Assembly: GCA_963840165.1 (NCBI GenBank)
Contig: CAWIXT010000006.1
Span: 310,244 to 374,243 of the forward strand
DNA length: 64,000 bases
From: an uncultured Gemmatimonadales bacterium
GTDB lineage: Bacteria; Gemmatimonadota; Gemmatimonadetes; Gemmatimonadales; GWC2-71-9
Reading direction: 5' to 3'
Below the pieces are notes generated by a model. It made no database searches and had not been told where the DNA came from. It saw nothing but the letters and a program-made list of their open reading frames with translations. The translations under genes were made by a program, and so were the position numbers. Positions 1 to 57,283 of this stretch are shown piece by piece. Position 1 is the first letter of the stretch. The number at the start of each line of letters is the position of its first letter.

Positions 1-39
1 AGAAAACTCGGGAAGGTCTTTGGGCATAGGCTCGATCGC

Positions 40-10526: not shown

Positions 10527-10638
10527 CGGTACGGCGGTAGGGCGGTAGGGCGGTATGCGTGAGCCCGTCTCGGATTCCATTCGGCACCCCTCACCTGCTG
10601 TTTACCGCCGTACCGTCCTACCGCCCTACCGCCTATCC
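10527..10638. repeat. Paired inverted arrays of the 8-bp repeat GGCGGTAG/CTACCGCC
   Basis: cggtacggcggtagggcggtagggcggtatgcg (10527-10558) faces tttaccgccgtaccgtcctaccgccctaccgcctatcc (10601-10638). The pair fills the whole rimM-trmD intercistronic gap. Confidence 0.85.
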
Positions 10639-11155: not shown

Positions 11156-11259
11156 GAGTCACGAGTCACGAGTCACGAGTAACGCCGGCAGGCTATGATA
11201 ACACCGACCGAGCGGGCAGCTACCGACTCAGCGACTCGCGACTCGCGACTCGCGACTTC
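11149..11259. repeat. Paired inverted arrays of 7-bp repeats, (GTCACGA)n and (CGACTCG)n
   Basis: cagtcacgagtcacgagtcacgagtcacgagtaacg (11149-11184) faces ccgactcagcgactcgcgactcgcgactcgcgacttc (11223-11259). The pair overlaps the rpsP 3' end and the rimM start. Confidence 0.85.
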
Positions 11260-12916: not shown

Positions 12917-13076
12917 GGCGGGCGGACTGGCGGGCGGACAGGCGGCAGGCGGACAGGCGGCAGGCGGACAGGCGGACAGGCGGACAGGCGGACAGGCGGA
13001 CAGGCGGACAGGCGGACAGGCGGACAGGCGGACAGGCGGACAGGCGGACAGGCGGACAGGCGGACAGGCGGACAGA
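12917..13076. repeat. Long tandem array of the 8-bp unit GGCGGACA: about 14 perfect plus about 5 degenerate units, roughly 160 bp
   Basis: Read directly from the sequence: ggcggacaggcggacagg... runs without interruption from about 12963 to 13075, with degenerate units from 12917. It lies in the ffh / DUF445 divergent intergenic region. Confidence 0.95.
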
Positions 13077-27084: not shown

Positions 27085-27199
27085 GCAGGAATATCGGGAA
27101 GGGCGAGGAGGGAAGGAAGGCATGCGCTGAGCGAACCCGAAGGGACGCGGCTGCCGCCCTTGCGAACATTCACCTGGCCGTATATCTGTTTAGGCGAAT

Positions 27200-27559
27200 A
27201 TGGCCACCTCGGCTGCAGATCTGTTGCTCGCGGTTGCGGAGCCCACCCGGCTGCGCATCCTGAACTGCCTGGCGGCAGCGCCTCTGTTCGTCTCCGACCT
27301 TCAAGCCGTGCTCGACCTGCCCCAGCCCACGGTATCCCGCCATTTGCAGGTGCTCCGCCGGGCCGACCTGGTGCGGGATACGCCGATTGCCCAGTTCGTG
27401 CTGTACCGCTTGCGGCGAAACGGAGGAGCCCACGGACGAATGCTGGCCGCCATCCTCGATGCCGTCGTCCATGACGATGGCGTGCTCCGCGCCGAGCGGC
27501 ACCGCGCCGCCGATCGGAGCCGGTCCCATACCCGAAGCCGAGTCCAGGAGCCCGCATGA
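27200..27559 (+). CDS. ArsR/SmtB-family transcriptional regulator
   Basis: LAVAEPTRLRILNCL...VSDLQAVLDLPQPTVSRHLQVLRRADLV winged-helix signature. The stop overlaps the next start (ATGA). Confidence 0.8.
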   Translation: MATSAADLLLAVAEPTRLRILNCLAAAPLFVSDLQAVLDLPQPTVSRHLQVLRRADLVRDTPIAQFVLYRLRRNGGAHGRMLAAILDAVVHDDGVLRAERHRAADRSRSHTRSRVQEPA

Positions 27560-28263
27560 CGCATCGGATTCTCGTAGTCGACGACGAGCCCGACATCACG
27601 GCCCTGGTGGCGTATCACCTGGCAAAGTCAGGGCTACGCGTCTCGACCGCCGCGAACGGGACGGATGCCCTCAAGGCGGCCCGGGAGGAGCGACCCGATA
27701 TCGTCATCCTCGATCTGATGCTGCCAGGTGTATCGGGCTACGATATCCTGGCCGAGTTGCGCAAACGGGAGGAAACCCGCGATGTCGGCGTCATTCTCCT
27801 GACCGCGCGGCGGGAGGAGACCGACCGAATTCGAGGTCTCTCCCTGGGGGCGGACGACTACCTCACCAAGCCGTTCTCGCCGCAAGAGCTGTCGCTTCGG
27901 GTGAGCGGTTTGCTGCGACGGCTGGGCAGCCCTGCCGTCAGTGCGGGGTCAACCCTGAGCGCCGGTCCGATCGTGATCGATCGGTCGGCTCACCGGGCCA
28001 CCATTCACGGGCAGGAGCTGAGCCTGACGGCGACCGAGTACAAACTCCTGCTCACGCTGGTCGAGCGCCGGGGGAGGGTGCAATCGCGGCCCCAGCTGCT
28101 CGAGATCGTCTGGGAAGCGCAGCCCGACATCCAGACCCGTACCGTGGACATGCATGTGCAGCGGCTCCGGACCAAGCTGGGTGACGCCGGGAAACTGATC
28201 GAGACGGTGCGGGGATTCGGCTACCGCTTCAAGGGGAATGAGCGCGGGGCCCGGGCCCGGTGA
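27556..28263 (+). CDS. phoB: OmpR/PhoB-family response regulator
   Basis: ILVVDDEPDI, the phospho-acceptor context DIVILDLMLPG, and KPF. The C-terminal winged helix has LTATEYKLLLTLV...VDMHVQRLRTKL. The symbol is inferred from family plus pst neighbourhood. Confidence 0.75.
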   Translation: MTHRILVVDDEPDITALVAYHLAKSGLRVSTAANGTDALKAAREERPDIVILDLMLPGVSGYDILAELRKREETRDVGVILLTARREETDRIRGLSLGADDYLTKPFSPQELSLRVSGLLRRLGSPAVSAGSTLSAGPIVIDRSAHRATIHGQELSLTATEYKLLLTLVERRGRVQSRPQLLEIVWEAQPDIQTRTVDMHVQRLRTKLGDAGKLIETVRGFGYRFKGNERGARAR

Positions 28264-30014
28264 CATTTGTCCGCCGATTGGTCCTGGGCTCGGTCCTCAT
28301 ACTGACCCTGGCTGTCGCCATCCTGCTCTGGGTCGCCGAACGGTCGCTCCGGCGAGATCTCGAAGGCGAGATCGCGCACACGCTGGAGAACGAGGCCAAG
28401 CTGGTTCGCGAGGCCCTCCGCCCGGACTCCACGGCCTGGCAAGCCGCCGTCATCCAATTGGCCCGCCAGGTCGGGCATCGGATCACCCTCGTCGACCGCG
28501 AAGGCCGGGTCCGGGCCGACAGCGACTTCCCCGCCGGACCGCTCCCCGCCATCGAGAGCCACGCCCAGCGCCCTGAGGTGGTCGTCGCTCTGAGGGGAGG
28601 CCGGGGCGTGGCAAGTCGGCGCAGCGACACCGTGGGGCAGCCGTTTCTCTACGTGGCGATACCAGGGGGGCCGGGCGTGGTGCGGGTCGCCGCGGGGCTG
28701 GAGCAGGTGGACGAGGTGGTCCGCCGGGCCCAGAGCGCCGTCGCCGGTGCCGCGTTACTGGCGCTGCTGGTCGGAAGCCTGCTGGCGCTGGCCGCAGGAA
28801 GGTCCATCGCGCAACCGCTCATCCAGATCAGCGCCGCCGCCCGGGCCATCGCGGCCGGCGCTCCGCCGCGATTTCCCCGATCCGGTATTCCCGACATTGA
28901 CGGGCTGGTACAGGCGCTGCGGCAGATGCACCGGCAGCTGGGTGACCGCTTCGAGGATCTCCGGCGGGAGCAGGCCGAAACGGCCGCTTTGGTGGAATCG
29001 ATGGTCGAAGGGGTCATCGCCGCGGACGGGCGGGGCCGCATCATCACGGCCAACGTGGCGGCGCGCCGGCTGCTCGGCTACAGCCTTACGGAGGAGCTGC
29101 CCGACCTACCGGAGCTCTTCCGGGTGAAGGCCGCCCGGCAGGTCGTGGACGCCGTCCTCCAGGGGCAAGCGGTGCAGGACCGGGAGCTGGAAGTGGATGA
29201 GCGCGCCATCCTGATGAACGCCAGGCCGCTCCCCTCGGGTGGCGCGGTGCTGGTGATCCACGATCTGACAGAGATCCGGCGGCTGGAAACAGTGCGGCGC
29301 GACTTCGTGGCCAATGTGTCCCACGAGCTCAAGACCCCGCTGACCTCGATCTCCGGCTATGCCGAGACGCTGCTGACCGACGCGCCCGATCCGGACACGA
29401 CCCGCCGCTTCCTGGGTACCATCCTGGAGAACGCCCGCCGGATGCAGCGGCTGGTAGACGATCTGCTGGATCTCGCACGGATCGAGGTTGGTCGCTGGCA
29501 GCCGGAGCCTGAGCCGACTGACGTGGCTGAAACGGCCCGGGAGATGTGGAGTGAGCTGGCCGAGCGGGCCGCGGCACGGGGCGTCGAGTTCACCGTGGAG
29601 ACGGAGCCGGCCGCGGGCAACCTCCATGCGGACGCCGACGCATTGCGCCAGATCCTGACCAATCTGCTGGAGAATTCACTCCGGCACACCGGCCGGGGCG
29701 GACGCATTGTCTGTCGAAGCCGGCTGGAAAACGGCGGAGTGGCGGTGAGCGTCTCAGATAATGGCTCGGGGATTCCCCATGAGCATCTGCCGCGGATCTT
29801 CGAGCGATTCTATCGAGCCGATCAGTCTCGCTCACGGGACGAGGGGGGCACAGGCCTGGGCCTGGCTATCGTGAAGCACCTGGTCGAGGCGCACGGCGGC
29901 AGGGTCTATGCAGAAAGTGAGCGGGGGGTAGGAACCACGGTCACCTGCTGGTTCCCTGCATCGAGCGCCACGCCCAGCGATCCTCTGGTGGAGGCCTCGC
30001 AGACCTCCCGATAG
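28260..30014 (+). CDS. phoR: Sensor histidine kinase, PhoR-like (2 TM, periplasmic domain, HAMP, PAS, HisKA, HATPase)
   Basis: H-box SHELKTPLTSISGY, N-box LLENSLRH, and G-boxes DNGSGIP and GTGLGLAIVKH. The GTG start overlaps the phoB stop. Confidence 0.75.
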   Translation: MTFVRRLVLGSVLILTLAVAILLWVAERSLRRDLEGEIAHTLENEAKLVREALRPDSTAWQAAVIQLARQVGHRITLVDREGRVRADSDFPAGPLPAIESHAQRPEVVVALRGGRGVASRRSDTVGQPFLYVAIPGGPGVVRVAAGLEQVDEVVRRAQSAVAGAALLALLVGSLLALAAGRSIAQPLIQISAAARAIAAGAPPRFPRSGIPDIDGLVQALRQMHRQLGDRFEDLRREQAETAALVESMVEGVIAADGRGRIITANVAARRLLGYSLTEELPDLPELFRVKAARQVVDAVLQGQAVQDRELEVDERAILMNARPLPSGGAVLVIHDLTEIRRLETVRRDFVANVSHELKTPLTSISGYAETLLTDAPDPDTTRRFLGTILENARRMQRLVDDLLDLARIEVGRWQPEPEPTDVAETAREMWSELAERAAARGVEFTVETEPAAGNLHADADALRQILTNLLENSLRHTGRGGRIVCRSRLENGGVAVSVSDNGSGIPHEHLPRIFERFYRADQSRSRDEGGTGLGLAIVKHLVEAHGGRVYAESERGVGTTVTCWFPASSATPSDPLVEASQTSR

Positions 30015-31192: not shown

Positions 31193-31209
31193 CGTCACGG
31201 TTTGGTCAA
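31193..31209 (-). promoter_or_regulatory. Candidate Pho box (two 11-bp-phased units) upstream of the GT4 gene
   Basis: The minus strand reads TTGACCaaaccGTGACG, 40-56 nt upstream of the GT4 ATG. It matches the unit and spacer pattern seen at 40792 and 37234. Confidence 0.35.
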
Positions 31210-31326
31210 ATGTGAGTCTCGATTGGTACCGGGATGCCCGGCGGGTCGAGCGATCCGGTGTTCGTTACCGATTCGTCGCGCGCCTGCGGCCATTCGGTTG
31301 CGAGTTGTGGAGAGATTTGTGGATAC

Positions 31327-31863
31327 ATGGAAACATCGATCCTGGTCCGAATCAGCGCCCGGGACAGAGTTCTTATGGCCCGGTACGCCATTGCGCCCAC
31401 CGCGCCGCAACCCTTGCGCGCGGTATGGACCGCGATCACCCACCTCGGTGGCACCGGTCCTACGCTTCTGGCGGCAGGCCTGCCATGGTTCGCGTGCTGC
31501 GCCTTGCACCACGCCTCGCGACTCGCCCTGGCAACGCTGGTACTCTCACATCTCGTGGTGCAGCTCGTGAAACGGACGGTGGGCCGGGGCCGGCCCGCGA
31601 GGTGCGACTGCGTCGCTCTGGTGCGGGAGCCGGACCGATTTTCGTTTCCTTCCGGACATTCGACCGCTGCCATGGCCGTCGCGCTTTCGTATGGCGCCGT
31701 GTTCCCGGCCTGGGCCCTTCCACTGGTGATCGTCGCCGTCGTGGTTGGATTCTCCCGGATCCGCCTGGGGGTGCACTATCCCAGCGATGTTCTCGTCGGC
31801 CAGCTCATTGCAGCGGCCACAGCTGGTGCGGTGTCGCTGTTCCCTTGGCTCAGCCCACCGTGA
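31327..31863 (+). CDS. PAP2-family phosphatase (phosphatidic acid / lipid phosphate phosphatase type)
   Basis: All three PAP2 motifs are present: KRTVGRGRP, PSGHS and SRIRLGVHYPSDV. The protein is polytopic. The ATG at 31327 is preferred over the longer ORF start at 31234. Confidence 0.85.
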   Translation: METSILVRISARDRVLMARYAIAPTAPQPLRAVWTAITHLGGTGPTLLAAGLPWFACCALHHASRLALATLVLSHLVVQLVKRTVGRGRPARCDCVALVREPDRFSFPSGHSTAAMAVALSYGAVFPAWALPLVIVAVVVGFSRIRLGVHYPSDVLVGQLIAAATAGAVSLFPWLSPP

Positions 31864-31882
31864 ACCAGACCGAGCGTAACGA

Positions 31883-32479
31883 CTACAGCTTGTTGGCATA
31901 GCTGAGAACCTTGTACCGCCCTCCCCGCTCCAGGATCTGAGTCAGCAGCCGAACCGAGATCGCCTTACCCCCCTGATCCCGCAGATGGAGAACGCAGGGG
32001 CCCGCCACTGTGTTCTTACCCTCGCGGCTCGCTTCCGGGCCGCAGTCGTGGCCCAGAAGCTCGAGACGCTGCCCGCCGTAGACGGCAAGCGCCCGGCGAA
32101 TCCCCCGCTCGCTGCGTTGTTGGAGCAGGTACCACATCAGACCTGGTTCCAGATCATAGGGAGGAAGACCTTGCGCCGCGGTGGGGTAGTACAAATAGGC
32201 GAACTCGGCGCGGCTGACCGCCATCGAGGCGAGGGCGGCCGTGTCGCGCCGCGCCAGTGCGGCAACGTACGCGGCCACCAGCGAGTCACGACTGCCATAC
32301 CCGCTTTCAAGCCGGGTGACCGGCTCCAGCCCTTTTCGAAAGCGCTGAATCGACGAGTCCCGGGGAATGAAACTGTCGACTACCCGCGCGGCGGCTGTGG
32401 TGCTGCGGCCCTCACCGTTCTCGCAGCCGGCCAGGATGCCGGCCCCGATTACAAGCACTGCCCTTAATAACATCGGCAT
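31883..32479 (-). CDS. Hypothetical lipoprotein
   Basis: MPMLLRAVLVIGAGILAGC lipobox. Intact 198-aa ORF and last gene of the TonB-receptor operon. I recognised no family. Confidence 0.5.
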   Translation of the reverse strand: MPMLLRAVLVIGAGILAGCENGEGRSTTAAARVVDSFIPRDSSIQRFRKGLEPVTRLESGYGSRDSLVAAYVAALARRDTAALASMAVSRAEFAYLYYPTAAQGLPPYDLEPGLMWYLLQQRSERGIRRALAVYGGQRLELLGHDCGPEASREGKNTVAGPCVLHLRDQGGKAISVRLLTQILERGGRYKVLSYANKL

Positions 32480-32543
32480 GGAGTTCCCGGCGTCGAGACC
32501 AGGATAGAGAGATGCAACTCCCTATCCTGGACCCCCGATGTCG

Positions 32544-34220
32544 TTAGTTCGTGGCGTAGTTGGTCCAACCCTGCCACCACTTGGCTCCCGCTGGATCCGC
32601 CGCGCCGAAATAGGTGGTGTTCGTCAAGGTCCCACCGAAAAAGCCGGCAGTGTATTCCGGAGGAATCACGACAGTTCCGGCTCCGGATGCCGCCGCCGAC
32701 CCTGCCGCCGGCGTCCAGTCCAGCGAGGCCGGGATCAGGCTGGTAAAGAGCGACGCCGCGGTTCCGCCCGAGACGACGTGGTTGGACGTCGCGAAAGCAC
32801 CCGCCTTGCCGAAGTTGGTGCCGGCGTCCTCGTCGTAATTCAACGCATTTTCCGCGAGCAGCAGGTTGGAGATGTTCAGCGAGTCGGCCGTCATGAGGGC
32901 GTCGGTCTCCGCATCTCTCACCGACAGACCCTGGCGCTGCCAGCGGGCCACGATGCCGTTGGTCAGGTAGCCGCCAGTTCCTCGGCGGAGCACCATCCCC
33001 ACGTCCCCACCGCTGGTGAGCGGTGTCGCGGTACCGGGGCCGACCAGTGTGAAGTTGGCAAAGACCGGGACCGAGAACGGCTGGGTAGCAAAGCCCAGAG
33101 CGCAGCCGGCACCGTTACAGCCGTCAGCCTCGAAACCCTGAGGATCGCTCGCGGGGACCCCGGCACTAGGCGCTGGGTCCGGCCGCGCGGACTGGAAGCC
33201 TATAAGGAACTGGTTCTGGCCCCGATAGCCTTCGGTCCAGTCGAAGTGGTCGTCGCCCGATTCATAGGAGACCAGGTAGCGCCCATCGACCGCGCCGCCC
33301 CACCACTCAAAGGAGTCGTCGAGGCCGGCCAGCGACTGAACGTACTCCAGTGTGGTTCCTGAACCGACAGCGTACATCGACAGGCTGTTGAGCTCCTGCC
33401 CGCTGCCCGCCGAGACGTCATAGCCGGCAAACTCGATCCGGACGTAGCGCAGCGTGCCGCTGTTGTCAGCGTTATCGGTCCCGCCCGAGTAATCCTCGGT
33501 GAACCCCTGGGGCCCCTCGGTAAGCACCGGCGGGGTGCGGTTGATGATGCCGTTACCGATGATGAGGAGCCCTCCCCAATCCCCTGGAGCGCGGGATCCA
33601 GCCGGCCTGCCCGACGTAAACACGATGGGCGCCTCGGCCGTGCCTTGAGCGTCGATCGAGGAGCCACGCAGAATCCACAGGGAGCTTCCCGCCTCTTCCG
33701 GATCGCCGACGATGGTGGTGCCCGGTTGAATCGTGAGGGTGGCCGCGTTGCCCACTTTCACGTAGCCGTTCAAGGTGTACAACGTGTCGGCATACAAGGT
33801 GCGGTCGGCCGAGATGTTGCCTGTCAGCGTCGCGACTTTCGCCCCGGCCACGGATGTGTTCACGGCCGAGCTGAACGTACCGGTCCCGTTGGCGTTCACG
33901 GCCGCCACCCGGTAACTGTAGGAGGCACCGGGGGTCACCGCCGCGTCGGTGTAGCTGGTCCCCGTGATCGTCCCACCGACCGCGGTAAAGGTGCCGGGAG
34001 CCGATGACTCAGCGCGCTCGAGTACATAACTCGTCGCGCCGCTGACGGCGGTCCAGGCAACCTCGACGGACGTCTCCCCTGCCGTGGCAGTCAAGCCGGT
34101 AGGTGCCGGCGGAGTCGCCGGCGGTTCTGTCAGGTCGTCATCGCCGCAGCCGGCCAGGAAGCCGGTCAGAAGCACTGCTGCTGCGGCAGCGCGAAGCGAG
34201 CGGGTGGAGAGCAACATCAC
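32544..34220 (-). CDS. Lipoprotein with an N-terminal fibronectin type III domain and a beta-helix-like body, partner of the adjacent TonB-dependent receptor
   Basis: LLTGFLAGC lipobox. Fn3 signature APTGLTATAGETSVEVAWTAVSGATSYVLER...YSYRVAAVN. The remainder is Gly/Thr/Asn-rich. It lies immediately downstream of the receptor gene. Confidence 0.6.
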   Translation of the reverse strand: MMLLSTRSLRAAAAAVLLTGFLAGCGDDDLTEPPATPPAPTGLTATAGETSVEVAWTAVSGATSYVLERAESSAPGTFTAVGGTITGTSYTDAAVTPGASYSYRVAAVNANGTGTFSSAVNTSVAGAKVATLTGNISADRTLYADTLYTLNGYVKVGNAATLTIQPGTTIVGDPEEAGSSLWILRGSSIDAQGTAEAPIVFTSGRPAGSRAPGDWGGLLIIGNGIINRTPPVLTEGPQGFTEDYSGGTDNADNSGTLRYVRIEFAGYDVSAGSGQELNSLSMYAVGSGTTLEYVQSLAGLDDSFEWWGGAVDGRYLVSYESGDDHFDWTEGYRGQNQFLIGFQSARPDPAPSAGVPASDPQGFEADGCNGAGCALGFATQPFSVPVFANFTLVGPGTATPLTSGGDVGMVLRRGTGGYLTNGIVARWQRQGLSVRDAETDALMTADSLNISNLLLAENALNYDEDAGTNFGKAGAFATSNHVVSGGTAASLFTSLIPASLDWTPAAGSAAASGAGTVVIPPEYTAGFFGGTLTNTTYFGAADPAGAKWWQGWTNYATN

Positions 34221-34326
34221 GTGGCCTCGAGTCAGAAGGGTTCCATAAAGTCGGGGTTACTGCCAGTCCGCGAATCAATGGTTTGCGTACCACCGATCGA
34301 GCACGGAAACGTCACGATCGGGTCAC

Positions 34327-37083
34327 TCACGGCTGCCAGCTCGCACCCAGGGAGAAGACCCGGCCGATCTTGTAGCGGCTCCGCAGAATTCCGCCCTGGG
34401 TGGCCCGGTACGGCGTGTCCAGCAGGTTTCTGGCTTCCAGCTTGAACGTGGTGTGCGCGAATACCGGCACCTGGAGAGAGAAGTCCACGATATGGCGGGC
34501 CTCCTCATAGGTGTCGGGGAATGGTTGAGCGCCCGCCTCCAGGATGCGCGGGCCCACCACGTTGTAGAGCGCAGTCCCGGTCACCCCTCCCGCGCTGGCG
34601 AAGGTCACCCCGCCGTTTACCACATACTCGGCCTGACCCACCATGGGACGGTCCGCGTTGGTCAGCACCGCCGTGCCCGGGGTAATCGTGCTGCGCATGA
34701 GTGTGGTGTTGGCAAAGATGGTGAACGGCACCAGACTGGGACTGAGGAAATCCAGGTTCTTCCTGACCTCCAGCTCGACCCCGTAGTTCTCCGCCTTCTC
34801 CGCATTGACGAAGCTGTTGGCCAGGGCGCCGGTCTGCACCACGAAGACCCGCTCGATGGGATCGTCGAATCGTTTGGCGAACACCGCCAGGCTCAGGACC
34901 TCCCCCGGACGGGGATACCACTCCCAGCGCAGATCGTAGTTCTGAATCAGGGCTCGCTGGAGATCAGGGTTGCCGAAGGTGATGAGTCCGCCGATCGGCT
35001 CGAAGGAGCTGACATCGGCGATCTCACGGTACTCCGGCCGGGAGAGCGTCTGGCTCGCCGAGGCCCTGAGCACCTGGTCGTCGGTCAGCTGGTAGTTCAG
35101 CGCAAGCGAGGGCAGGATGTCGGTGTTCTCGCGGGAAGTGGCGGACGGCTCCCCTTGAGGGCTCAGGGTATTGAGGTCCAGGGTCCACCGCTCCAGCCTC
35201 GCTCCCCCGATGAGTCGCAGGCGCGAGGTCACCGGCAGCTCCACCAGGGCGTATCCCGCCGCGAGACGGTCCCGGGCGTCGTAACGGCCGCCATTGGCGT
35301 TGATGAAGAGAGAAAGCCTGCTGTCCTGGGCGTAGGGCCCGGCAAAAATCTGTTCGGGCACGACCTGGCGGTCCGCCAGTGAGAGAGCCCGATTGGTAAT
35401 GTCGAACGCCCGGCTGTCGACATCCCGGTCCACCGCTCTGAATGCCGCACCGGTCTTGATCATGGCAGGGCTCGATGTCGAGCCGAGGATCAGGCGGTAA
35501 TTAGCGGCCCCGTCATAGCTGCTCTCATCGAGCTCGCTGAAGGTCCGGGTAGCGGATTGCGCGCCGCCCCACCAATCCAGCGGAACCGACGTGCCGGTGA
35601 CTGGATCGATGCTGGTCCGATACGCGATGTCAGAGCGGTCCGGCTCGTTACGGCTGACGTGGGATCCAGTGAACGACCAGTCCACGACATGGCTCGAGCC
35701 GAGCAGATGCTCGCCTGCGAGTTGATGGGAGCGCACGGTCCGCTGGACGAACGTCAGACGGGTGACATCGAGATCGACGTTGAACTCCTCGTTCTCGCCT
35801 GCAAGCCGGACGGCCTCGTTGTCAGCGCTTCGGTTATACGTGTTATTGAAGGAGAGCTTGCTGTTGGCGCCAAGCCGGGTACTGAGATTCGCGATTCCGC
35901 CCCACAGCACGTTGTTCCGGGAGGTTGAACCGGCACTCTCGTTATAAGGGCGGAATCCGGCGCTGCTGCTTTGGATCAGGGCACGAGACTCCTCCAGCCG
36001 CGCTTCCTGTCCGTACGAGTAGGTGAAAGAACCGATGTACCCGATCGGCTGGTTGAAGACCGGGTCTTCGCCTCCAATACTGACGCCGAAGCTGGCGTTG
36101 CCGGTGCCGGTTCCTGGCTGCGCGGACCAGGCATTCCTAAAGGAGCTGATGATGTTGTTGACGTCGGTCTGGCTGGCGCCGCTCAGATCGCCTGCGGCCA
36201 CCGCTGGAGCGGGGATTTGACGCGCGTCGCCCGGCATGCCGCGCCACTCACTGCCGGTGGTCGGCGCCCGATAGAGATCCTTGCCGCTGGCAGCCGTGTT
36301 GAGGCCGGCCATGGCCGAGAAGTTGATGACCCGCCCGGCCGGAAACTCCCGGGTCTTGAGGTTGACGGAGGCGCCGGAGAAGTCACCGGGCTGATCCGGA
36401 GTGAACGTCTTTGAGGTGGTGATTCCTTCCAGGAGGCTGGAGGGGAAGATGTCCAGCGGCACCACCTTCCGCTCTGGCTCCGGACTCGGGACTCGAACGC
36501 CGTTGAGCGAGGTAGTGGTGTATCGCTCTCCCAGGCCCCGAACGAACACATACTTGCCGTCCTGGACGGTGACGCCACTCACCCGCTGGACCGCCTGGCC
36601 CGCGTCGCTGTCCGGACTCTTCTCGATCTGTTCGCTGGTGACGGAGCTGACGATGTTGGTGGCGTTTCGCTGCTCATCCAGCGCCCGGTTGACTGTTCCC
36701 CGTTCTGCCTCGGCGCTCACTTCGATCTCCGCCAGCTGAACGGCGGACGCAGATAGCGCGATATCCTGTACCGCGGTCCCTCCCGCGGGAACCACGACGC
36801 CGGTGACCACCTTCGGCGCAAAGCCGATCATGCGCACCCGGATCGCCACCGGACCGGCGGGTACCGGATTGAGCGCGTATCGTCCGTCCAGCGCCGAGGT
36901 GGTGATGAGGTTGGATTCCACGACCTCGATTTGGGCCCCGGCTACCGGAGCTCCTTGCTCCGCGTCGACGACCCGGCCTACCACTCGCCCGACATCCTGC
37001 GCGACGAGGGGCTGGCTGGCGAAACCGGGGCCGAGCAGGAGACTTGCAAGAGCAACACGTTGCAACAGAGGGGGAGTGGGCAT
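34327..37083 (-). CDS. TonB-dependent outer-membrane receptor with an N-terminal carboxypeptidase-regulatory-like domain
   Basis: The N-terminal GRVVDAEQGAPVAGAQIEV...DGRYAL...IRVRMIGF fold is followed by a plug (IVSSVTSEQIEKSPDSDAGQAVQRVSGV) and a long beta-barrel. The barrel ends in the ...RVFSLGASWQP terminal strand. Confidence 0.9.
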   Translation of the reverse strand: MPTPPLLQRVALASLLLGPGFASQPLVAQDVGRVVGRVVDAEQGAPVAGAQIEVVESNLITTSALDGRYALNPVPAGPVAIRVRMIGFAPKVVTGVVVPAGGTAVQDIALSASAVQLAEIEVSAEAERGTVNRALDEQRNATNIVSSVTSEQIEKSPDSDAGQAVQRVSGVTVQDGKYVFVRGLGERYTTTSLNGVRVPSPEPERKVVPLDIFPSSLLEGITTSKTFTPDQPGDFSGASVNLKTREFPAGRVINFSAMAGLNTAASGKDLYRAPTTGSEWRGMPGDARQIPAPAVAAGDLSGASQTDVNNIISSFRNAWSAQPGTGTGNASFGVSIGGEDPVFNQPIGYIGSFTYSYGQEARLEESRALIQSSSAGFRPYNESAGSTSRNNVLWGGIANLSTRLGANSKLSFNNTYNRSADNEAVRLAGENEEFNVDLDVTRLTFVQRTVRSHQLAGEHLLGSSHVVDWSFTGSHVSRNEPDRSDIAYRTSIDPVTGTSVPLDWWGGAQSATRTFSELDESSYDGAANYRLILGSTSSPAMIKTGAAFRAVDRDVDSRAFDITNRALSLADRQVVPEQIFAGPYAQDSRLSLFINANGGRYDARDRLAAGYALVELPVTSRLRLIGGARLERWTLDLNTLSPQGEPSATSRENTDILPSLALNYQLTDDQVLRASASQTLSRPEYREIADVSSFEPIGGLITFGNPDLQRALIQNYDLRWEWYPRPGEVLSLAVFAKRFDDPIERVFVVQTGALANSFVNAEKAENYGVELEVRKNLDFLSPSLVPFTIFANTTLMRSTITPGTAVLTNADRPMVGQAEYVVNGGVTFASAGGVTGTALYNVVGPRILEAGAQPFPDTYEEARHIVDFSLQVPVFAHTTFKLEARNLLDTPYRATQGGILRSRYKIGRVFSLGASWQP

Positions 37084-37175
37084 GGGCCTTCCGTCACGGG
37101 GGATCGAGGCAGCTCAGGCAGGCTGCCAGGTGTCTGCCGGTACGGAGGGATCCTGCGCGAAACCGGTCGCGGCGG

Positions 37176-37203
37176 CACAACGATTGTGCAACGGAACGGT
37201 CAC
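37176..37203 (-). promoter_or_regulatory. Candidate degenerate Pho box upstream of the TonB receptor gene
   Basis: The minus strand reads GTGACCgttccGTTGCAcaatcGTTGTG: three GT-initiated hexamers at exact 11-bp phasing, 93-120 nt upstream of the ATG at 37083. The second and third units are imperfect. Confidence 0.3.
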
Positions 37204-37233
37204 GGGGCACTTCCGGGGGGCACACCTACGCCT

Positions 37234-37261
37234 GGGACCCGTCGTTTACCTGTTCGTTACA
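37234..37261 (+). promoter_or_regulatory. Candidate Pho box (three 11-bp-phased units) upstream of the porin-pstS1 transcription unit
   Basis: GGGACCcgtcgTTTACCtgttcGTTACA, followed 8 nt later by TATGCT (37270-37275) as a possible -10. The porin ATG is at 37350. Confidence 0.45.
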
Positions 37262-37349
37262 GAAAAGCTTATGCTCCGTGACCTGATTTCAGCTTCTTAG
37301 CACCCGTGTTGGACGGCACCGTCTTCCACCACCATCCCGAAAGGGGCCT

Positions 37350-38534
37350 ATGAGCCTGCAGGCGCGAAGAACCGCGATGGGAATCGGGCTGGTTGTTGCT
37401 CTCGGAGCAGCTACGGCGAGTGCCCAGACTACCTACCCGAACGTCAAACTCTCGGGACGCCTCCAGGCCCAGGCCTATTACTTCTCCAATGAGGAATTCG
37501 CTGCCGTGGTGGGGCCCACCAGCAGCATGTTCATCCGGCGGGCCCGGATCGAGGCGCGGGGGCAGATCTCCGAGAACGTGAGCGTATACGTGCAGCCGTC
37601 GTTCGAAGGCGGACGCAATCTCAGCGGCCTGACCACCACCTGTACCTCAACCCCCGTGCCGGCCGGGGGTGGCACTCCGGTGATCACCTGCCGGAGCACC
37701 GGCCGCAGCGGATTTCGGCTGCGCGACGCCTACATTGACGTGCTCTTCAGTCCGGTAACCAGCAAGGGAGCGCTATACCTCCGGGCCGGACAGGAGAAGC
37801 GCCCCTTCAGCCGCTACGAGCTGACTTCTTCCAACAACCTGCCGTCGATCGAGCGCGGCGGCGGAACGGGCCTGCTGCCCCGCGCGTCCAATGATCTGTT
37901 CGGGGGAGCCGGTTTTCTCTCCCATGATGTGGGCGCCAGCGTGCGCTACGAGTACAAGCTGGGGGACACCCGCCTGATCACGGTCAAGTTCGGCGCCTAC
38001 AACGGGCAGGGCGAGAGTCTCAACGACGTCAACAGCCAGAAGAGCTTCGGGGCCCGGGGAACCGTGGGACTCACGTCCAAGCTCGAAGTCGGCGGCTCGT
38101 GGTTCGCTCATGACGGCATTGTCACGGTAGGAGGCGTGCCCGACTCCAGCTTCACCAACTATGCGTTCGACATTGACGCTCAGTGGGGCAAGCCGGGCGA
38201 CGAAGGACTGTTCGCCCTGGCGGAGTACCTGCACGGCAACGACGCTACCGCGTCAAAATTCACAATCCAGGGCGTGCAGGCCGTTGCGGCGTACAACATC
38301 CGCATGACCAGCCCCACGTCCTGGCTCTACGCGATCGAGCCGTCGTTCAGGGTTGACCTGGCGGATCCCAACACCGACGCGGAGGGTGATCGGGTCACCA
38401 CAATCACCGGCGTCTTCGGCATCTACATGTCGAGCCGGGCGCAGCTGCGGGTGGGCTACGAACGGCAGAGCTTCCAGGACGACCTGCTTCCGAGCATCAG
38501 CGGCGTGCGCAGCGCGCTGACCGTGAACTTCTAA
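37350..38534 (+). CDS. Phosphate-selective porin O/P family outer-membrane protein
   Basis: Signal peptide ...ALGAATASAQ. The N-terminal KLSGRLQAQAYYF...MFIRRARIEARGQISENVSVYVQPSF pattern is typical of OprO/OprP-like porins. The protein ends in ...SALTVNF. It lies directly upstream of pstS. Confidence 0.75.
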   Translation: MSLQARRTAMGIGLVVALGAATASAQTTYPNVKLSGRLQAQAYYFSNEEFAAVVGPTSSMFIRRARIEARGQISENVSVYVQPSFEGGRNLSGLTTTCTSTPVPAGGGTPVITCRSTGRSGFRLRDAYIDVLFSPVTSKGALYLRAGQEKRPFSRYELTSSNNLPSIERGGGTGLLPRASNDLFGGAGFLSHDVGASVRYEYKLGDTRLITVKFGAYNGQGESLNDVNSQKSFGARGTVGLTSKLEVGGSWFAHDGIVTVGGVPDSSFTNYAFDIDAQWGKPGDEGLFALAEYLHGNDATASKFTIQGVQAVAAYNIRMTSPTSWLYAIEPSFRVDLADPNTDAEGDRVTTITGVFGIYMSSRAQLRVGYERQSFQDDLLPSISGVRSALTVNF

Positions 38535-38550
38535 TCAACGAGGACCGAGG

Positions 38551-39594
38551 ATGACCACGCGACATCTGCTGGTGCTGGGGGCAGCCGCCCTTGCTTTCGG
38601 CACGCCTGCCGCGGCCCAGAAACTGACCGGCGCCGGCGCAACGTTCCCGAACCCGATTTACACCAAGTGGTTCGACGCGTACAACAAGAAGACCGGCATC
38701 GAGATCAACTACCAGTCTATCGGGTCCGGCGGAGGCATCCGCCAGTACACCGAGGGCACCGTCGACTTCGGCGCCACCGACGGCCCCATGAACGAGTCCC
38801 AGATCCAGGCGGTGAGCGGCAACGTCCTCCATGTTCCCGCCGTGCTGGGCGCGGTGGTGGTGACCTACAACCTCCCCACCCTGGGAGACACCAAGCTCAG
38901 GTTCGACGGCAACCTGCTGGTCGACATCTTCATGGGCCGGGTGACCAAGTGGAACGACCCCAAGATCGCGGCGCTCAATCCGGGCGTGAAGCTGCCCGGC
39001 ATAGACCTCATCGTGGTGCATCGCTCCGACGGTTCCGGCACCACCTATGTGTTTACCGACTACCTGAACAAGTTTTCCCGGGAGTGGAAGGACAAGGTCG
39101 GCTACGCGACGTCGGTGAACTGGCCGGTTGGGCTGGGTGGCAAGGGCAATGAGGGCGTGACTCAGCAGGTAAAGCAGGTCGAAGGCGCGCTCGGGTACGT
39201 GGAGCTGATCTATGCCCTGTCCAACAACCTGCCGTACGCCCAGGTCAAGAACCCAGCGGGAAATTTCAGCACTCCGTCTCTGGAATCGGTGACTGCCGCC
39301 GCCGCAGGCATCAAGCTGCCCAAGGACACCGACTTCCGGGTGTCGATCACCAATGCGCCGGGCGCGGACGCATACCCAATCGCCTCGTTCACCTGGCTGC
39401 TGGTTCGGAAGGACAACAAGGATACTGCCAAGGCCAAGCTGATCCGGGATTTCCTGACCTGGATGATTACACCCGAGGCCCAGAGAATGGCCTCCGACCT
39501 CCACTATGCACCGCTGCCGGCGCCGGTGATCGCTCTGGTCCAAGAGCGCCTGTCCACGCTGAAAGCGGGCGGCAAATCAATCGCCTCGCGCTGA
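38551..39594 (+). CDS. pstS: Phosphate ABC transporter substrate-binding protein (signal-peptidase-I type)
   Basis: LTGAGATFPNPIYTKWF, YQSIGSGGGIRQ, TVDFGATDGPM and HRSDGSGTT. A GAGGA Shine-Dalgarno precedes the ATG. Confidence 0.9.
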   Translation: MTTRHLLVLGAAALAFGTPAAAQKLTGAGATFPNPIYTKWFDAYNKKTGIEINYQSIGSGGGIRQYTEGTVDFGATDGPMNESQIQAVSGNVLHVPAVLGAVVVTYNLPTLGDTKLRFDGNLLVDIFMGRVTKWNDPKIAALNPGVKLPGIDLIVVHRSDGSGTTYVFTDYLNKFSREWKDKVGYATSVNWPVGLGGKGNEGVTQQVKQVEGALGYVELIYALSNNLPYAQVKNPAGNFSTPSLESVTAAAAGIKLPKDTDFRVSITNAPGADAYPIASFTWLLVRKDNKDTAKAKLIRDFLTWMITPEAQRMASDLHYAPLPAPVIALVQERLSTLKAGGKSIASR

Positions 39595-39613
39595 CGGGGC
39601 ACCTGCGTCTGGG

Positions 39614-39643
39614 AACGGCCGGGGCCGCGAGGCGCCGGCCGTT
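39614..39643 (+). terminator. Weak stem-loop (possible attenuator) after pstS1
   Basis: AACGGCCGG-12 nt-CCGGCCGTT forms a 9-bp stem. Only TTT follows, so it is not a canonical intrinsic terminator. Confidence 0.3.
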
Positions 39644-39706
39644 TGCACATCCGGCGGAACCGGATCACCTTGGAGCGAGGGTTAGCGCTCCACCCTGGAG
39701 GAGCCT

Positions 39707-40768
39707 TTGCCGAGAACCAGATGTCACCACCTGATCGGCCTGACGGTTGTCGTGGCCGCATGTGGAGGGGACCAGCGGACGCCAGGAGCATCCACGGACG
39801 GCTCCGCCCCACGACGGAGCGGTCCGGCGCTGACCGGCGCCGGGGCTACCTTCCCCGCTCCACTCTACACCAAGTGGTTCGATGTCTTCGCCCGGGAGAC
39901 CGGGATTCAGATCAATTACCAGTCGATCGGATCCGGCGGCGGCATCCGTCAATTTATCGAGGGCACGGTGGACTTCGGCGCCACCGACGGTCCCATGACG
40001 GACCAACAGATTGCGGCGGTTGAAGGAAACGTCCTGCACCTGCCCACCGCGCTCGGTGCCGTCAGCGTGACCTACAACCTCCCCACGCTCGGCGCGACCC
40101 CGCTTGCCTTCGACGGTCGGGCCCTGGCCGGGATTTTTCTGGGACGGATTACCCGCTGGAACGATCCGCGGCTGGCAGCCCTGAATCCCGGAGTGAGCCT
40201 GCCTCCGGACGATATCGTAGTGGTTCGGCGCTCGGACGGGTCGGGGACCACCTTCATCTTCACCGACTATCTCTCCAAGGTCTCGCCCGAATGGACCGAT
40301 AACGTCGGAAGGGGGACGGCGGTGAACTGGCCTGTGGGGCTCGGCGGCAAGGGCAATGAAGGTGTCACCCAGCAGGTCAAGCAAGCCCCGGGCACTATCG
40401 GGTATGTCGAACTGATTTATGCCATCTCCAACAAACTCCCGTCAGCCCGGATCCGGAACGCGGCCGGGGCGCTGGTCCAGCCGACCCTGAAGAGCGTGGC
40501 GGCCGCCGCGGCGGGCGCGAAGCTGGGACCCGACACTGATTTCCGGGTCTCGATCACCAACGCACCGGGTGGCGATTCATACCCGATTGCGTCCTTTACC
40601 TGGCTGTTGATCAGAAAACAGGATCCCGACACCATCCGGGCCCGGACCATCGCGACCTTTCTGAAATGGATGCTGGAGCCACCGGCCCAGCGGATGGCAG
40701 CCGACCTGCACTACGCGCCATTGCCGGTTCCGGTCATCGAGCTGGCCCGGAGAAGGATTCCGGACTAG
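39707..40768 (+). CDS. pstS: Phosphate ABC transporter substrate-binding protein, lipoprotein paralogue
   Basis: A TTG start is preceded by GGAGGAG. LIGLTVVVAACGG is a lipobox. The same PstS motifs are present (GAGATFPAPLYTKWF, YQSIGSGGGIRQ, RRSDGSGTT). Confidence 0.9.
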   Translation: MPRTRCHHLIGLTVVVAACGGDQRTPGASTDGSAPRRSGPALTGAGATFPAPLYTKWFDVFARETGIQINYQSIGSGGGIRQFIEGTVDFGATDGPMTDQQIAAVEGNVLHLPTALGAVSVTYNLPTLGATPLAFDGRALAGIFLGRITRWNDPRLAALNPGVSLPPDDIVVVRRSDGSGTTFIFTDYLSKVSPEWTDNVGRGTAVNWPVGLGGKGNEGVTQQVKQAPGTIGYVELIYAISNKLPSARIRNAAGALVQPTLKSVAAAAAGAKLGPDTDFRVSITNAPGGDSYPIASFTWLLIRKQDPDTIRARTIATFLKWMLEPPAQRMAADLHYAPLPVPVIELARRRIPD

Positions 40769-40791
40769 TCCCTTTTCTAAGGCGCGCGCCC

Positions 40792-40819
40792 GTGACCCGT
40801 CCGTTACAAAGCCGTGACG
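40792..40819 (+). promoter_or_regulatory. Candidate Pho box (three perfect 11-bp-phased units) upstream of pstC
   Basis: GTGACCcgtccGTTACAaagccGTGACG. TAAGAT at 40841-40846 is a possible -10, only 5 nt before the pstC ATG at 40852. Confidence 0.5.
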
Positions 40820-40851
40820 ATTCGCGGAGAAGCCGCCTGTAAGATCCTCCC

Positions 40852-42680: not shown

Positions 42681-43509
42681 ATCCGCGGTGAGCAAAGCGC
42701 TTCCAGTTTCCGCCGGCGCCATACCGCCGGCTCCCGTGGCCCCTCCGGGGGCCCAGCCCAAGATGGCCACCGACAAGCTCACTGCCATGTATGGCAAGTT
42801 CACGGCGGTGAAGGGAGTGTCGCTCGGCTTTGCGCCCAATCAGGTGCACGCCCTGATCGGACCTTCCGGCTGCGGCAAGTCCACCTTCCTGCGCACCCTC
42901 AACCGGATGCACGAGCTTTCGGACAACGGCTGGATTACCGGCCGGGTCCTGCTCGAGGGCGAGGACATCTATGCGCCGAGGGTGAATGCCATGCAGCTGC
43001 GCCGCCGGGTCGGGATGGTCTTCCAGCGTCCCACACCGTTCCCCACCATGTCGGTGTACGACAACGTCGCGGCCGGGCTCCGGGTGAACCGCAGCCTCCC
43101 TCGCTCCGAGCTCGATAGCGTGGTGGAGCGTTCGCTGCGCCAGGCCGCTCTCTGGGAAGAGGTCAAGGACCGGCTCAAGGCCAGTGCCATGGCGCTTTCG
43201 GGCGGCCAGCAGCAGCGGCTCTGTATCGCCCGAACCATTGCGCCGTCGCCGGACGTGGTCCTCCTGGACGAGCCTACGGCCTCGCTCGATCCCCAGGGCA
43301 CCCAGCGGATCGAGGAGCTGCTGTTCGACCTGAAGCGGCACTTCACGATCGTCATCGTCACCCACAACATGCAGCAGGCCGCCCGGGTGTCCGACACCAC
43401 GACGTTTTTCTACCTCGGCACCATGGTCGAGACCGGCCGTACCCGGCAGATCTTCACGGCGCCACGGAACGAGCAGACCGAGGCCTACATCACGGGAAGG
43501 TTCGGATGA
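42673..43509 (+). CDS. pstB: Phosphate ABC transporter ATP-binding protein PstB (intact copy)
   Basis: Walker [10 protein letters not shown], signature [13 protein letters not shown], Walker [12 protein letters not shown], and C-terminal EAYITGRFG. Confidence 0.9.
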
Positions 43510-44354
43510 GCACTACCATGACTCCCAGGCCCTTCGTCACTGCACCGCAGGTAACGCTGGCCCCGCGCCAGCCGGTGGCCCCACTCGGTTCCAGAGGAGC
43601 CCCAGCGGTGGACGTGCGGGACTTCAGCTTCTTCTACGGGCCCCGTCAGGCGCTCGAAGAATCTGACCTTCGCCATCGAGCGCCGGGCGGTCACCGCGAT
43701 CATCGGCCCCTCGGGGTGCGGCAAGTCCACCTTCCTCCGCTCCATCAACCGGTTGAACGACCTCATCCCAGGCGTCCGCCACCGCGGGGATATCCTGGTC
43801 GAGGGCACCTCCGTCTTCGGTTCCGGGACCGATCTGGTCTCGCTGCGCCAGCGGGTGGGCATGGTGTTTCAGCGGCCCGAACCCGTTTCCCAAGTCGGTC
43901 TTCGACAACGTGGCATACGGGCCGGCACTCAACGCCCTGGTCACGCGGCGCGACCTGCCCGATCTGGTCGAGCGCTGCCTGCGTCAGGCCGCGCTGTGGG
44001 ATGAAGTGAAAGACCGGCTCGAGGAGCTCGGCACCGGCCTGTCCGGAGGGCAGCAGCAGCGGCTCTGCATCGCCCGGGCGCTGGGCAATCAGCCCGAGGT
44101 GCTGCTGATGGACGAGCCCTGCTCGGCACTCGACCCCATCGCCACTCAGAAGGTGGAGGAGCTGATCTTCGATCTGAAGCAGCACTACACCATCGTGATC
44201 GTAACCCACAACATGCAGCAGGCCGCGCGGGTCTCGGACTACACCGGCTTCTTCGACCGCGGGCGAGCTCATCGAGTTCGACGAGACCGAGCGGCTCTTC
44301 ACCAAGCCGCAGCACGAGCGGACCGAAGCGTACATCACCGGGAGATTCGGATGA
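43506..44354 (+). pseudogene. pstB: Second PstB ATP-binding protein; three +1 insertions
   Basis: The protein reads correctly only by shifting at about 43650, about 43880 and about 44258. The recovered sequence is FYGPRQAL / [25 protein letters not shown]...VGMVFQRP / [14 protein letters not shown]...[13 protein letters not shown]...DYTGFFDR / [30 protein letters not shown]. The three insertions total 3 nt, so the stop is back in the original frame. Confidence 0.85.
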
Positions 44355-45061
44355 GCCTCGACGTCCATCGCCACTTTCACGATGAGCTGAGCCACGTCAA
44401 GGTCCGGCTGCTGACCATGTCGGGCGAGGCGGAAGCCGCGCTCGGGCTGGCAGTAGAGGCGCTGCTGGAGCGGGACAGCGAGAAGGCCCAGCGGGTCATC
44501 GCCGGCGACCGGGTGATCGACGCCATGGAAGTCGAGATCGAGGAGCAGAGCATCAATCTCCTGGCGTTGCAGCAGCCGATGGCCCGGGACCTCCGGATGC
44601 TCACATCGGCGCTCAAGATCGCCAACGATCTCGAGCGGGTGGGAGACCACGCGGTCAACATCGCGCAGTCCGCCGAGCGGCTGAACCAGGCCCGTCCCAT
44701 CGCGCCAGAGCCCGAGATCGTGGACATGGCCCGGCTGGCGCGGGAGATGCTCTCCGATGCGCTCGAGGCCTTCATCCGGGGAGACGCCGAAGCGGGGCGC
44801 GAAGTCTGCCGCAGGGACGACAAGGTGGATGCGCTGCATCGGTCGGTATTCCGGATTTTGCTGACCCACATGATGGAGGATCCCCACACCATCGGCTCCG
44901 GTATGGAGCTGTTTCTGGTGAGCCGCAACCTCGAACGGGTGGCCGACCTGGCTACGAACATCGGCGAAGACGTGGTGTTCCTGGTGGAGGGCCGCTCAAT
45001 CAAGCACCACTCCGAGGATCGGGGCGAAGCCCGCAAGGATCCGGCACCGACCAGGAAGTGA
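44351..45061 (+). CDS. phoU: Phosphate signalling complex protein PhoU
   Basis: The ATG at 44351 overlaps the pstB2 stop (ATGA). Both PhoU repeats are present, with [15 protein letters not shown] and [16 protein letters not shown]. Confidence 0.9.
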
Positions 45062-56048: not shown

Positions 56049-56194
56049 GCGGGTAACCGGGTAACCGGGTAAGCCGGTAGAGTACACGAGGGGGCCAGAA
56101 GCTGAATAGAGCTCGGCCCCTTCGCTGCGCTCAGGGTGACAGAGGCTCTCCCCCCCGGCCTACCCGCTTACCCGCCCACCCGCTGTCCCGCTAC
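56049..56194. repeat. Paired inverted 8-mer arrays (GGGTAACC / TACCCGCY) enclosing a single core-element arm
   Basis: gcgggtaaccgggtaaccgggtaagccggtagag (56049-56082), core ccccttcgctgcgctcagggtgaca (56117-56141), and ggcctacccgcttacccgcccacccgctgtcccgctac (56157-56194). Confidence 0.8.
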
Positions 56195-56930: not shown

Positions 56931-57200
56931 ATGACCACCAGCGAAGAGACCGACTGGATGAACCATCCCGCTATCCGGGCCCTGGTGGATCAGGCGAACA
57001 CCTTGCAGCTCGAAGAGCGGATCACGCTGGTCAAAGGTTTGATCCCCGGCATAGCGGACGCACTCTCGGAGGAGGAATACGAGCAGTTCGTCACCTTCAT
57101 CAGGCTCAAGGGCGAGCGGTACCACGAGGCGAAATCCCATCCGGGCGCCGGCCGGGCCGAGCGACACATCCCGGGTGAGCGCGAGCTGGAAGGACGGTAG
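56931..57200 (+). CDS. Small hypothetical protein (89 aa)
   Basis: The ATG at 56931 within ORF 56820..57200 gives MTTSEETDWMNHPAIRALVDQANTLQLEERITLVKGLIPG. The composition looks coding, but I recognised no motif. Confidence 0.45.
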   Translation: MTTSEETDWMNHPAIRALVDQANTLQLEERITLVKGLIPGIADALSEEEYEQFVTFIRLKGERYHEAKSHPGAGRAERHIPGERELEGR

Positions 57201-57283
57201 GCAGCGGGGCAGCGGGGCAGCGGGGCAGCGGGGCAGCGGGGCAGCCAAACTAGCAAATTGTCACCCTGAGCGCAGCGAGGGGG
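57200..57283. repeat. 8-bp tandem array (GGCAGCGG x5.5, five GGGG tracts) followed by a core-element arm
   Basis: ggcagcggggcagcggggcagcggggcagcggggcagcggggcagcc (57200-57246), and tgtcaccctgagcgcagcgaggggg (57259-57283). The latter is the 24/25 reverse complement of 56117-56141. Confidence 0.9.

Follow-up and report, generated by a model that had tools for sequence, protein, structure and literature searches.

The phosphate locus of an uncultured Gemmatimonadales bacterium raises the question of whether the short repeats that recur at 11-bp intervals in front of its genes are Pho boxes, the operators of the phosphate-starvation response. The stretch analysed, called the window, comprises 64,000 nucleotides with a G+C content of 65.6% (assembly GCA_963840165.1, contig CAWIXT010000006.1, positions 310,244 to 374,243), and positions are counted from its first letter. 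In a preliminary description made from the letters alone, GTGAC/GTTAC-type hexamers had been listed upstream of four or five promoters and read as a lineage-specific Pho box. The five listed strings were all found where they had been placed, and the listed sites proved to be conserved. Two more sites had been overlooked, one at an fn3-domain gene (34326) and one at a Ppx/GppA-type gene (1732, outside the range of that description), which brings the total to seven. As argued below, the phased repeats are very likely Pho boxes, the predicted operators of a phosphate-starvation regulon of Gemmatimonadota. The seven sites are located as follows.

40792 to 40819, plus strand: pstC operator, GTGAC (40792), GTTAC (40803) and GTGAC (40814) in 11-bp phase
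37245 to 37283, plus strand: porin-pstS1 operator, TTTAC (37245), GTTAC (37256), one empty phase, GTGAC (37278)
37176 to 37203, minus strand: operator of the TonB-dependent receptor gene, GTGAC (37203), GTTGC (37192), GTTGT (37181)
34299 to 34326, minus strand: operator of the fn3-domain gene, GTGAC (34326), GTGAC (34315), GTGCT (34304)
31193 to 31221, minus strand: GT4 operator, C-GAGAC (31220-31216), TTGAC (31209), GTGAC (31198)
31264 to 31280, plus strand: PAP2 operator, GTTAC (31264), GTCGC (31275)
1716 to 1732, minus strand: operator of the Ppx/GppA-type gene, GTTAC (1732), GTGAC (1721), about 50 nt upstream of the gene

At least two units were found at all seven sites (two to three, plus phased extras). 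The strict pair GTKACV-N5-GTKACV occurred four times in the 64 kb, each time in an intergenic region, against an expectation of 0.12, and none of 100 dinucleotide shuffles reached four strict pairs. Two of the pairs form the pstC triple; the others lie at 34326-34310 and 1732-1716, both on the minus strand. At other spacings from 6 to 33, the window holds 0-2 strict pairs each. The pstC operator was the sole site with the strict hexamer in all three units, and degenerate units were found at every other site of the earlier list. When up to one mismatch was allowed, 10 pairs at 11 bp were counted in the window, with no excess over other spacings. The degenerate sites are therefore not individually significant within the window, and the porin, TonB receptor, GT4 and PAP2 sites need comparative evidence.

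Such evidence was obtained from a PstS1 search of species-representative genomes, which yielded 80 loci with ±10 kb flanks. Loci L001-L069 are from Gemmatimonadota (PstS identity 58-93%), L070-L071 are labelled just "bacterium" and L072-L080 are mostly from Verrucomicrobiota. In 69 loci, with the pstC triples masked, same-strand GT[GT]AC pairs peaked at 11 bp (55 pairs), 22 bp (80) and 33 bp (39), against about 5 pairs (0-13) at each of the other spacings from 5 to 50. In these related Gemmatimonadota loci the cores were invariant and the spacers drifted, with each site class conserved in 10-53 related species. The earlier claim of genuine 11-bp-phased direct repeats is borne out by these peaks and by the order-wide conservation.

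The core of the unit was y-C-GTKAC, with C at -1 in 133 of 158 units and C or T at -2. Weaker units were GTTGC, GTCGC, TTGAC and GAGAC, and an A follows some units (GTTACA). The recurrence of spacers that had been pointed out earlier was mostly the conserved y-C 5' flank of the next unit, the rest of the spacer varying freely. Around 135 of the 155 chains of strict units (11 or 22 bp; 69 loci and the window) were located directly 5' of pstC, porin, pstS, fn3, GT4, PAP2 or ppx genes.

The best conserved arrangement was examined at pstC. An exact copy of the triple GTGAC-N6-GTTAC-N6-GTGAC was found in 51 of the 61 Gemmatimonadota loci with a pstC upstream region; among the 10 exceptions, pstC is fused directly to pstS in eight and near-matches are present in two. 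In an unanchored MAFFT alignment of this region from 19 species (mean column identity 51%), every column 5' of the ATG varied except those of the three 5-mers, of a single flanking C and of T-A...T-C within a -10-like hexamer. Conserved bases that had not been used in site finding were also seen, namely the C at -1 of each unit, TCC before unit 2 and an A after GTTAC. The hexamer lies between the operator and the gene.

40840 to 40845, plus strand: -10-like TAAGAT, followed after 6 nt by the pstC ATG (40852)

In 50 of 53 pstC loci, TAnnnT was placed exactly 21 nt after the last GTGAC. The start codon, ATG or GTG, follows 5-9 nt past TAnnnT, and no Shine-Dalgarno sequence is present. The same geometry is found in documented leaderless genes (PMC3160421, Table 1). 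Since the -10-like box lies 5-9 nt from the ATG, the pstC mRNA is probably leaderless, and with the A of the ATG as the transcription start the centres of the three cores would lie near -58, -47 and -36. The units of the operator are odd in number and always follow the same order, and pstC has a promoter of its own, separate from pstS1 and pstS2. Unlike at pstC, GAAAGG/GGAG ribosome-binding sites are retained at the porin and GT4 genes.

The remaining operators stand in front of the following genes, whose labels, like those of pst, the regulator and the neighbouring genes, were confirmed by Pfam and NCBIfam. Two pstS genes, pstC, pstA, pstB, phoU and ppx are also present in the window.

About 31153 (true ATG), minus strand: GT4 glycosyltransferase
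31327 (ATG), plus strand: PAP2 phosphatase
32544 to 34220, minus strand: fn3-domain protein, 558 residues
34327 to 37083, minus strand: TonB-dependent receptor
37350 to 38534, plus strand: phosphate-selective porin

Each gene class displayed its own conserved architecture, with a geometry that was fixed within the class. The porin class, [GT]TTAC-N6-GTTACa-N17-cGTGAC, was found in 47 loci, the window included. In relatives with a separate pstS promoter the same 0/11/33 pattern was seen, and more than 55 loci had a box 5' of porin or of pstS. Phased units had been reported at this site before; the GGGACC at 37234 counted among them is not conserved, while the conserved GTGACC at 37278 had been missed. 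An ggcTnntTAnnc element (37292-37303 in the window) is conserved 8-20 nt 3' of the last porin unit in the 47 loci, at a distance unlike that of TAnnnT at pstC, and may be a weak or atypical -10 element.

The receptor class, cGTGAC-N6-GTT[GT]C-N6-GT, was present 5' of the receptor gene in 14 loci. The fn3 class, GTGAC-N6-GTGAC(-N6-GTGc) or TTGACA-N5-GTGAC-N6-GTsGC, was found in 11 loci, and in the window its strict pair (34326-34310, minus strand) lies between the stop of the TonB receptor gene and the fn3 gene. Ten loci contained the GT4 class, with the in-phase consensus aAtCGagAC-N6-tTcAc-N6-CGTgAC; to the units listed earlier at this site a third conserved unit in phase, C-GAGAC (31220-31216), has to be added. 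The PAP2 class, GTTAC-N6-GT[ACG]G[CT], was located 5' of the PAP2 gene in 15 loci; the unit formerly described as single is in fact one of two (GTTAC-N6-GTCGC). The ppx site, GTTAC-N6-GTGAC, was found in the window and in L009, where the gene is 86% identical.

The window was also scanned in its entirety for two units at 11 bp with a unit matrix. For its training, 373 units from other genomes were used, to which neither the window nor its two closest relatives contributed. The top seven matches in the window were ppx, pstC (twice), TonB, fn3, porin and PAP2, and GT4 ranked tenth. The best-scoring pair was the ppx site (23.1 bits), and the TonB receptor site, at 17.3, scored higher than all control spacings. 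The controls peak at 14.4-16.7 bits, and just the first four matches beat all of them by score. No box was found at about 20 other genes of the window that were checked, housekeeping or unrelated, among them those for a ferritin-like protein, RNase HII, Ffh, DnaK, HtrA, peptidases and a nucleoside transporter and phosphorylase. The ppx2 gene has no box either.

Two candidates were discarded. The high scores at a spacing of 14 bp came from the 7-bp tandem array (AGTCACG)x5 at 11150-11184, which is not an operator, and the candidate at 56065 (minus strand) is an 8-bp tandem array, (CGGGTAAC)x3, beside a terminator-like hairpin. Intergenic arrays of 7-9 bp, such as (AGTCACG)x5, (GGCGGACA)x18 and (GGCAGCGG)x5.8, were observed at several places in the window.

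11150 to 11184 and 11224 to 11257: tandem arrays
10527 to 10555 and 10603 to 10633: tandem arrays
46886 to 46922 and 46980 to 47046: tandem arrays
56050 to 56077 and 56161 to 56192: tandem arrays
12933 to 13075: tandem array
57200 to 57245: tandem array

Several of them are paired, with reverse-complementary units 50-100 bp apart. Comparable arrays (ggtactc, ggaaggacg) are found in relatives and are unrelated to the 11-bp boxes.

A candidate for the binding protein is encoded next to the pst genes, by the first of two adjacent genes.

27556 to 28263, plus strand: OmpR/PhoB-type response regulator (Pfam Response_reg and Trans_reg_C)
28260 to 30014, plus strand: PhoR/PnpS-like histidine kinase (HAMP-PAS-HisKA-HATPase)

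The regulator is the only OmpR-family protein in the window. The pair adjoins pst-phoU, and 41 of the 80 loci, counting those of the outgroups, have the regulator-kinase pair no more than 10 kb from pstS. The recognition helix of the regulator reads RTVDMHVQRLR, compared with RTVDVHIRRLR in E. coli PhoB (checked against PDB 1GXP/1QQI), and the wing Arg is conserved. The possibility that residues of this helix cause the change from TGTCA to GTKAC was considered and rejected: the helices of Gemmatimonadota (M, Q) and Verrucomicrobiota (T, R) differ, yet both phyla share the same unit. No simple residue-to-base rule is therefore apparent.

The start of the PhoB-like gene is overlapped (ATGA) by a gene for an ArsR-type helix-turn-helix protein of 119 residues (27200-27559, plus strand), which is probably co-transcribed with phoBR because of this overlap. 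Upstream of the ArsR-like gene, 27 relatives carry a -35-like TTGCG together with the palindrome ATATTCG-N5-CGAATAT, which extends as far as the ATG; its form in the window is gTATATCTGtttagGCGAATATG (27180-27202). The palindrome is probably an ArsR-type self-operator. A divergent 5'-nucleotidase gene shares this upstream region. TTCACC at 27169 was considered as a box unit and rejected, as it is the spacer of the promoter.

The orientation of the units differed between phyla. At every Gemmatimonadota site, GTKAC is on the coding strand of the target gene. In the Verrucomicrobiota loci, GTTAC-N6-GTGAC(A) was found beside pstS on the strand opposite to it, as in L074, where it lies between the end of the kinase gene and the start of pstS. 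The polarity of the unit relative to the promoter therefore differs between the phyla. Some of the Verrucomicrobiota and Acidoferrum boxes have a third GTTAC 22 bp upstream.

L072 9954, L074 9930, L077 9937, L078 8252, L075 8452, L079 8402 and L080 8390, minus strand: opposite-strand boxes beside pstS in Verrucomicrobiota and Acidoferrum

From the sites, their phasing and conservation and their restriction to the named genes, we infer a binding protein, a mode of activation and a phosphate signal as follows. When phosphate is scarce, the PstSCAB-PhoU complex would free the PhoR-like kinase, which would then phosphorylate the PhoB-like regulator (27556..28263). The units are repeated directly every 11 bp and have y-C-G-T-(G/T/n)-A-C as their core, and two to four of them in phase make up a site. 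The winged-helix domains of the regulator would line up head-to-tail along one face of the DNA, each on a unit of its own. Bound regulators would bring RNA polymerase to promoters with a -10 but no -35 element. The predicted targets are pstCAB-phoU-ppx, with its own promoter and a probably leaderless mRNA, the phosphate-porin-pstS1 unit, the TonB-dependent receptor, the fn3-domain gene, a second ppx gene and the divergent GT4/PAP2 pair, which plausibly replaces phospholipids by glycolipids. The Pho-box reading proposed earlier is supported by the repeats 5' of pstC and of porin-pstS beside the sole OmpR/PhoB-type regulator; its lineage-specificity and several of its site details are not.

A more particular form of this proposal, in which geometry and wiring are non-canonical, seems rather doubtful. 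It would comprise an ordered, odd GTGAC-GTTAC-GTGAC operator before a leaderless pstC, a polarity reversed in Verrucomicrobiota, and a phoBR pair that is not autoregulated through a box, is co-transcribed with an ArsR-type repressor and is possibly gated by it. If true, this wiring would represent a phosphate response undescribed for model bacteria.

Several observations weigh against the Pho-box reading. The regulator matched the PhoB family (TIGR02154) best, but its 243.8 bits fall short of the curated cut-off, 296.2. The best NCBIfam matches of the kinase, PnpS and PhoR, were likewise below their cut-offs (296.8 vs 334.2 bits). For the DNA-binding domain alone, the nearest solved relatives were ArlR and other OmpR-family proteins, with E. 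coli PhoB in eighth place. The arsR-like-phoB-phoR operon has no box in most species, and none was found at the 5'-nucleotidase gene and pstS2. The distance from the box to the downstream conserved element or -10 differs between gene classes. The nearest of the three pstC units lies about 21 nt from the -10-like box and is centred at about -36; in E. coli, about 10 bp separate the end of the pho box from the -10 hexamer. For four of the seven target units (TonB receptor, fn3, GT4, PAP2) the link with phosphate is itself a deduction, and the sample of loci is centred on pst loci.

Among the alternatives, the one that survives best is that the repeats are real operators of another OmpR/PhoB-family regulator encoded elsewhere, for instance an envelope-stress or nutrient regulator, and that the adjacent PhoB-like protein recognises something else. 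Members of this family often have GTnAC-type units spaced by 11 bp, and comparable units occur in the sites of OmpR (GTTACA-like) and of Streptomyces GlnR (gTnAc-n6-GaAAc). The low PhoB score of the adjacent regulator, its ArlR/OmpR-type DNA-binding domain and the lack of a box at phoBR also fit this explanation. However, the targets are centred on pstSCAB-phoU, the phosphate-selective porin and ppx, which form the core of Pho regulons (PMC4415409). The regulator-kinase pair keeps close to pstS in about half of the loci, within the 10 kb given above, and the PhoB of D. vulgaris binds an identical consensus (PMC3333781). A different regulator is thus considered unlikely.

It could also be argued that the hexamers are core promoter elements, either -35-like sequences or the site of an alternative sigma factor, and that their repetition is incidental. 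TTGACA-like units do exist, as TTGACC (GT4), TTTACC (porin) and TTGACA (fn3 sites of relatives). Nevertheless, no unit was accompanied by a -10 element at 16-18 nt, and no complete sigma-70 promoter was found at any of the sites. Two to four copies stand in strict 11-bp phase and reach to about -60, and the spacings peak at 11, 22 and 33 bp; GTGAC and GTTAC, the units conserved best, bear little resemblance to a -35 element, and the arsR-like promoter of these genomes has a different -35-like sequence, TTGCG. This explanation is very improbable. The idea that the pattern arose by chance, from base composition or as a copy of the genome's short tandem arrays is refuted and has next to no probability left: one-mismatch pairs at 11 bp are no commoner than other spacings in the window and many 7-9-bp arrays exist, (AGTCACG)x5 even containing the core, but no shuffle out of 100 reached four strict pairs, conservation extends over about 50 species with drifting spacers, the location is confined to a coherent gene set and the period is 11 bp, not 7-9 bp.

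Some further features of the locus were observed. The region 39595-39706, upstream of pstS2, is without a box, and a G+C-rich hairpin, ggaacggccggggccgcgaggcgccggccgtttgc, lies at about 39612-39645, 3' of pstS1; the expression of pstS2 may therefore be independent of a Pho box or result from read-through. In 11-14 relatives the genes for the TonB receptor and the fn3 protein and a small open reading frame follow one another in this order, the first two again preceded by boxes. This arrangement suggests an outer-membrane uptake system under phosphate control. The small open reading frame in the window, downstream of the fn3 gene, encodes 198 residues (31883-32479, minus strand); no function could be assigned to its product or to the fn3-domain protein. 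In the fn3-domain protein, Pfam detected fn3 only, and relatives carry PF28492. Its AlphaFold model has a mean predicted local distance difference test (pLDDT) score of 47.5 and is confident just for residues ~35-220. Frame changes with in-frame stops were seen in the Ppx/GppA-type gene at 1-1666 (minus strand) and between pstB and phoU at 43506-45061 (plus strand), where the C-terminal part of an ABC_tran domain runs on in frame into PhoU domains; they reflect either errors of assembly or pseudogenes. No known RNA families were found in the 30.5-41.5 kb interval searched.

Gemmatimonadota are abundant in soils and include polyphosphate accumulators. Only six of their species have been cultured (PMC10581226), and the literature searched yielded neither a Pho box nor regulatory sites described for this phylum. 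A Pho box would provide a sequence tag for phosphate-starvation genes in hundreds of uncultured genomes. It also yields concrete predictions for the regulon, i.e. a separate pstCAB promoter, a phosphate porin, a TonB receptor with an fn3 protein, and a GT4/PAP2 pair that may drive the remodelling of phospholipids to glycolipids.

How do these sites compare with known Pho boxes? A Pho box is built of 11-nt direct repeat units with 6-7 conserved and 4-5 variable positions, and its consensus varies by species: E. coli has CTGTCAT, S. coelicolor GTTCACC (PMC4415409, PMC2275107). The sites described here are 11-nt direct repeats as well, with at least two adjacent units, and they stand, among other places, 5' of the pst phosphate transporter genes, the part of the Pho regulon that is conserved best.

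In high-GC S. coelicolor, as here, the 11-nt units start with GT and a core is joined by weaker extension units. The number of units in its PHO box is variable (two, four, occasionally odd), and a single unit is insufficient for binding (PMC2275107). The core differs, GTTCACC as opposed to (C)GTKAC, and the S. coelicolor sites have been footprinted, whereas those of Gemmatimonadota are predicted.

In B. subtilis, the PhoP repeats lie on the coding strand. Liu and Hulett, cited in PMC2275107, are said to have described, in 1998, a core site of TT(A/T/C)ACA repeats about 11 bp apart. GTTACA, TTTACC and TTCACC match this TTHACA at 4-5 of 6 positions, and the kinase of the window has the HAMP-PAS architecture of the B. 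subtilis PhoR/PnpS-like type. GTGAC, the commonest unit here, departs from it at positions 1 and 3.

With E. coli, the sites share the 11-bp direct repeats, the presumed head-to-tail binding of winged-helix domains (PhoB-DNA structure 1GXP), a box that may replace the -35 element at pst promoters, and nearly alike recognition helices (RTVDxHxxRLR). As had been noted earlier, CTGTCAT is absent, the units on the coding strand being GTGAC/GTTAC. The complement of GTKAC, GTCAC/GTAAC, resembles TGTCA(C/T), which leaves the relative polarity ambiguous. Two PhoB sites have been reported upstream of E. coli phoB (PMC10294691); here the arsR-like-phoBR operon is without a box, so the autoregulation of phoB known from E. 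coli is not seen.

The closest counterpart was found in D. vulgaris, whose PhoB (DVU1083) recognises a (c/t)GT(n)AC repeat, as established by DNA-affinity-purified chip (DAP-chip) analysis and electrophoretic mobility shift assay (PMC3333781). A validated Desulfovibrio site, AGGTTACAGCATAGTTAC, reads GTTAC-N6-GTTAC (PMC6456213). The core GTnAC preceded by C or T and the 11-bp register are the same, and the D. vulgaris boxes precede the pstSCA operon and phoU. The units at the por promoter are printed in the sense of the forward sigma-54 promoter, and are thus probably co-directional with the gene, as here. The differences concern the phylum, position 3, which in Gemmatimonadota is G or T in a site-specific manner (GTGAC/GTTAC/GTGAC), the three- and four-phase layouts with one empty phase at porin and pstS, and the fixed gap of 21 nt to the -10-like box at the probably leaderless pstC; the sites of Gemmatimonadota are known from sequence. 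The claim of a lineage-specific variant has to be abandoned, because the unit equals the D. vulgaris consensus (PMC3333781) and also flanks pstS in Verrucomicrobiota. By their sequence features, the Gemmatimonadota sites would belong to the PHO-box class with a Desulfovibrio-type consensus, and not to the E. coli CTGTCAT type. This type of site is already known from Desulfovibrio and is extended here, at the level of predicted operators, to two more phyla. Its occurrence in both Gemmatimonadota and Verrucomicrobiota suggests that the (c/t)GTnAC type may be widespread outside Gammaproteobacteria.

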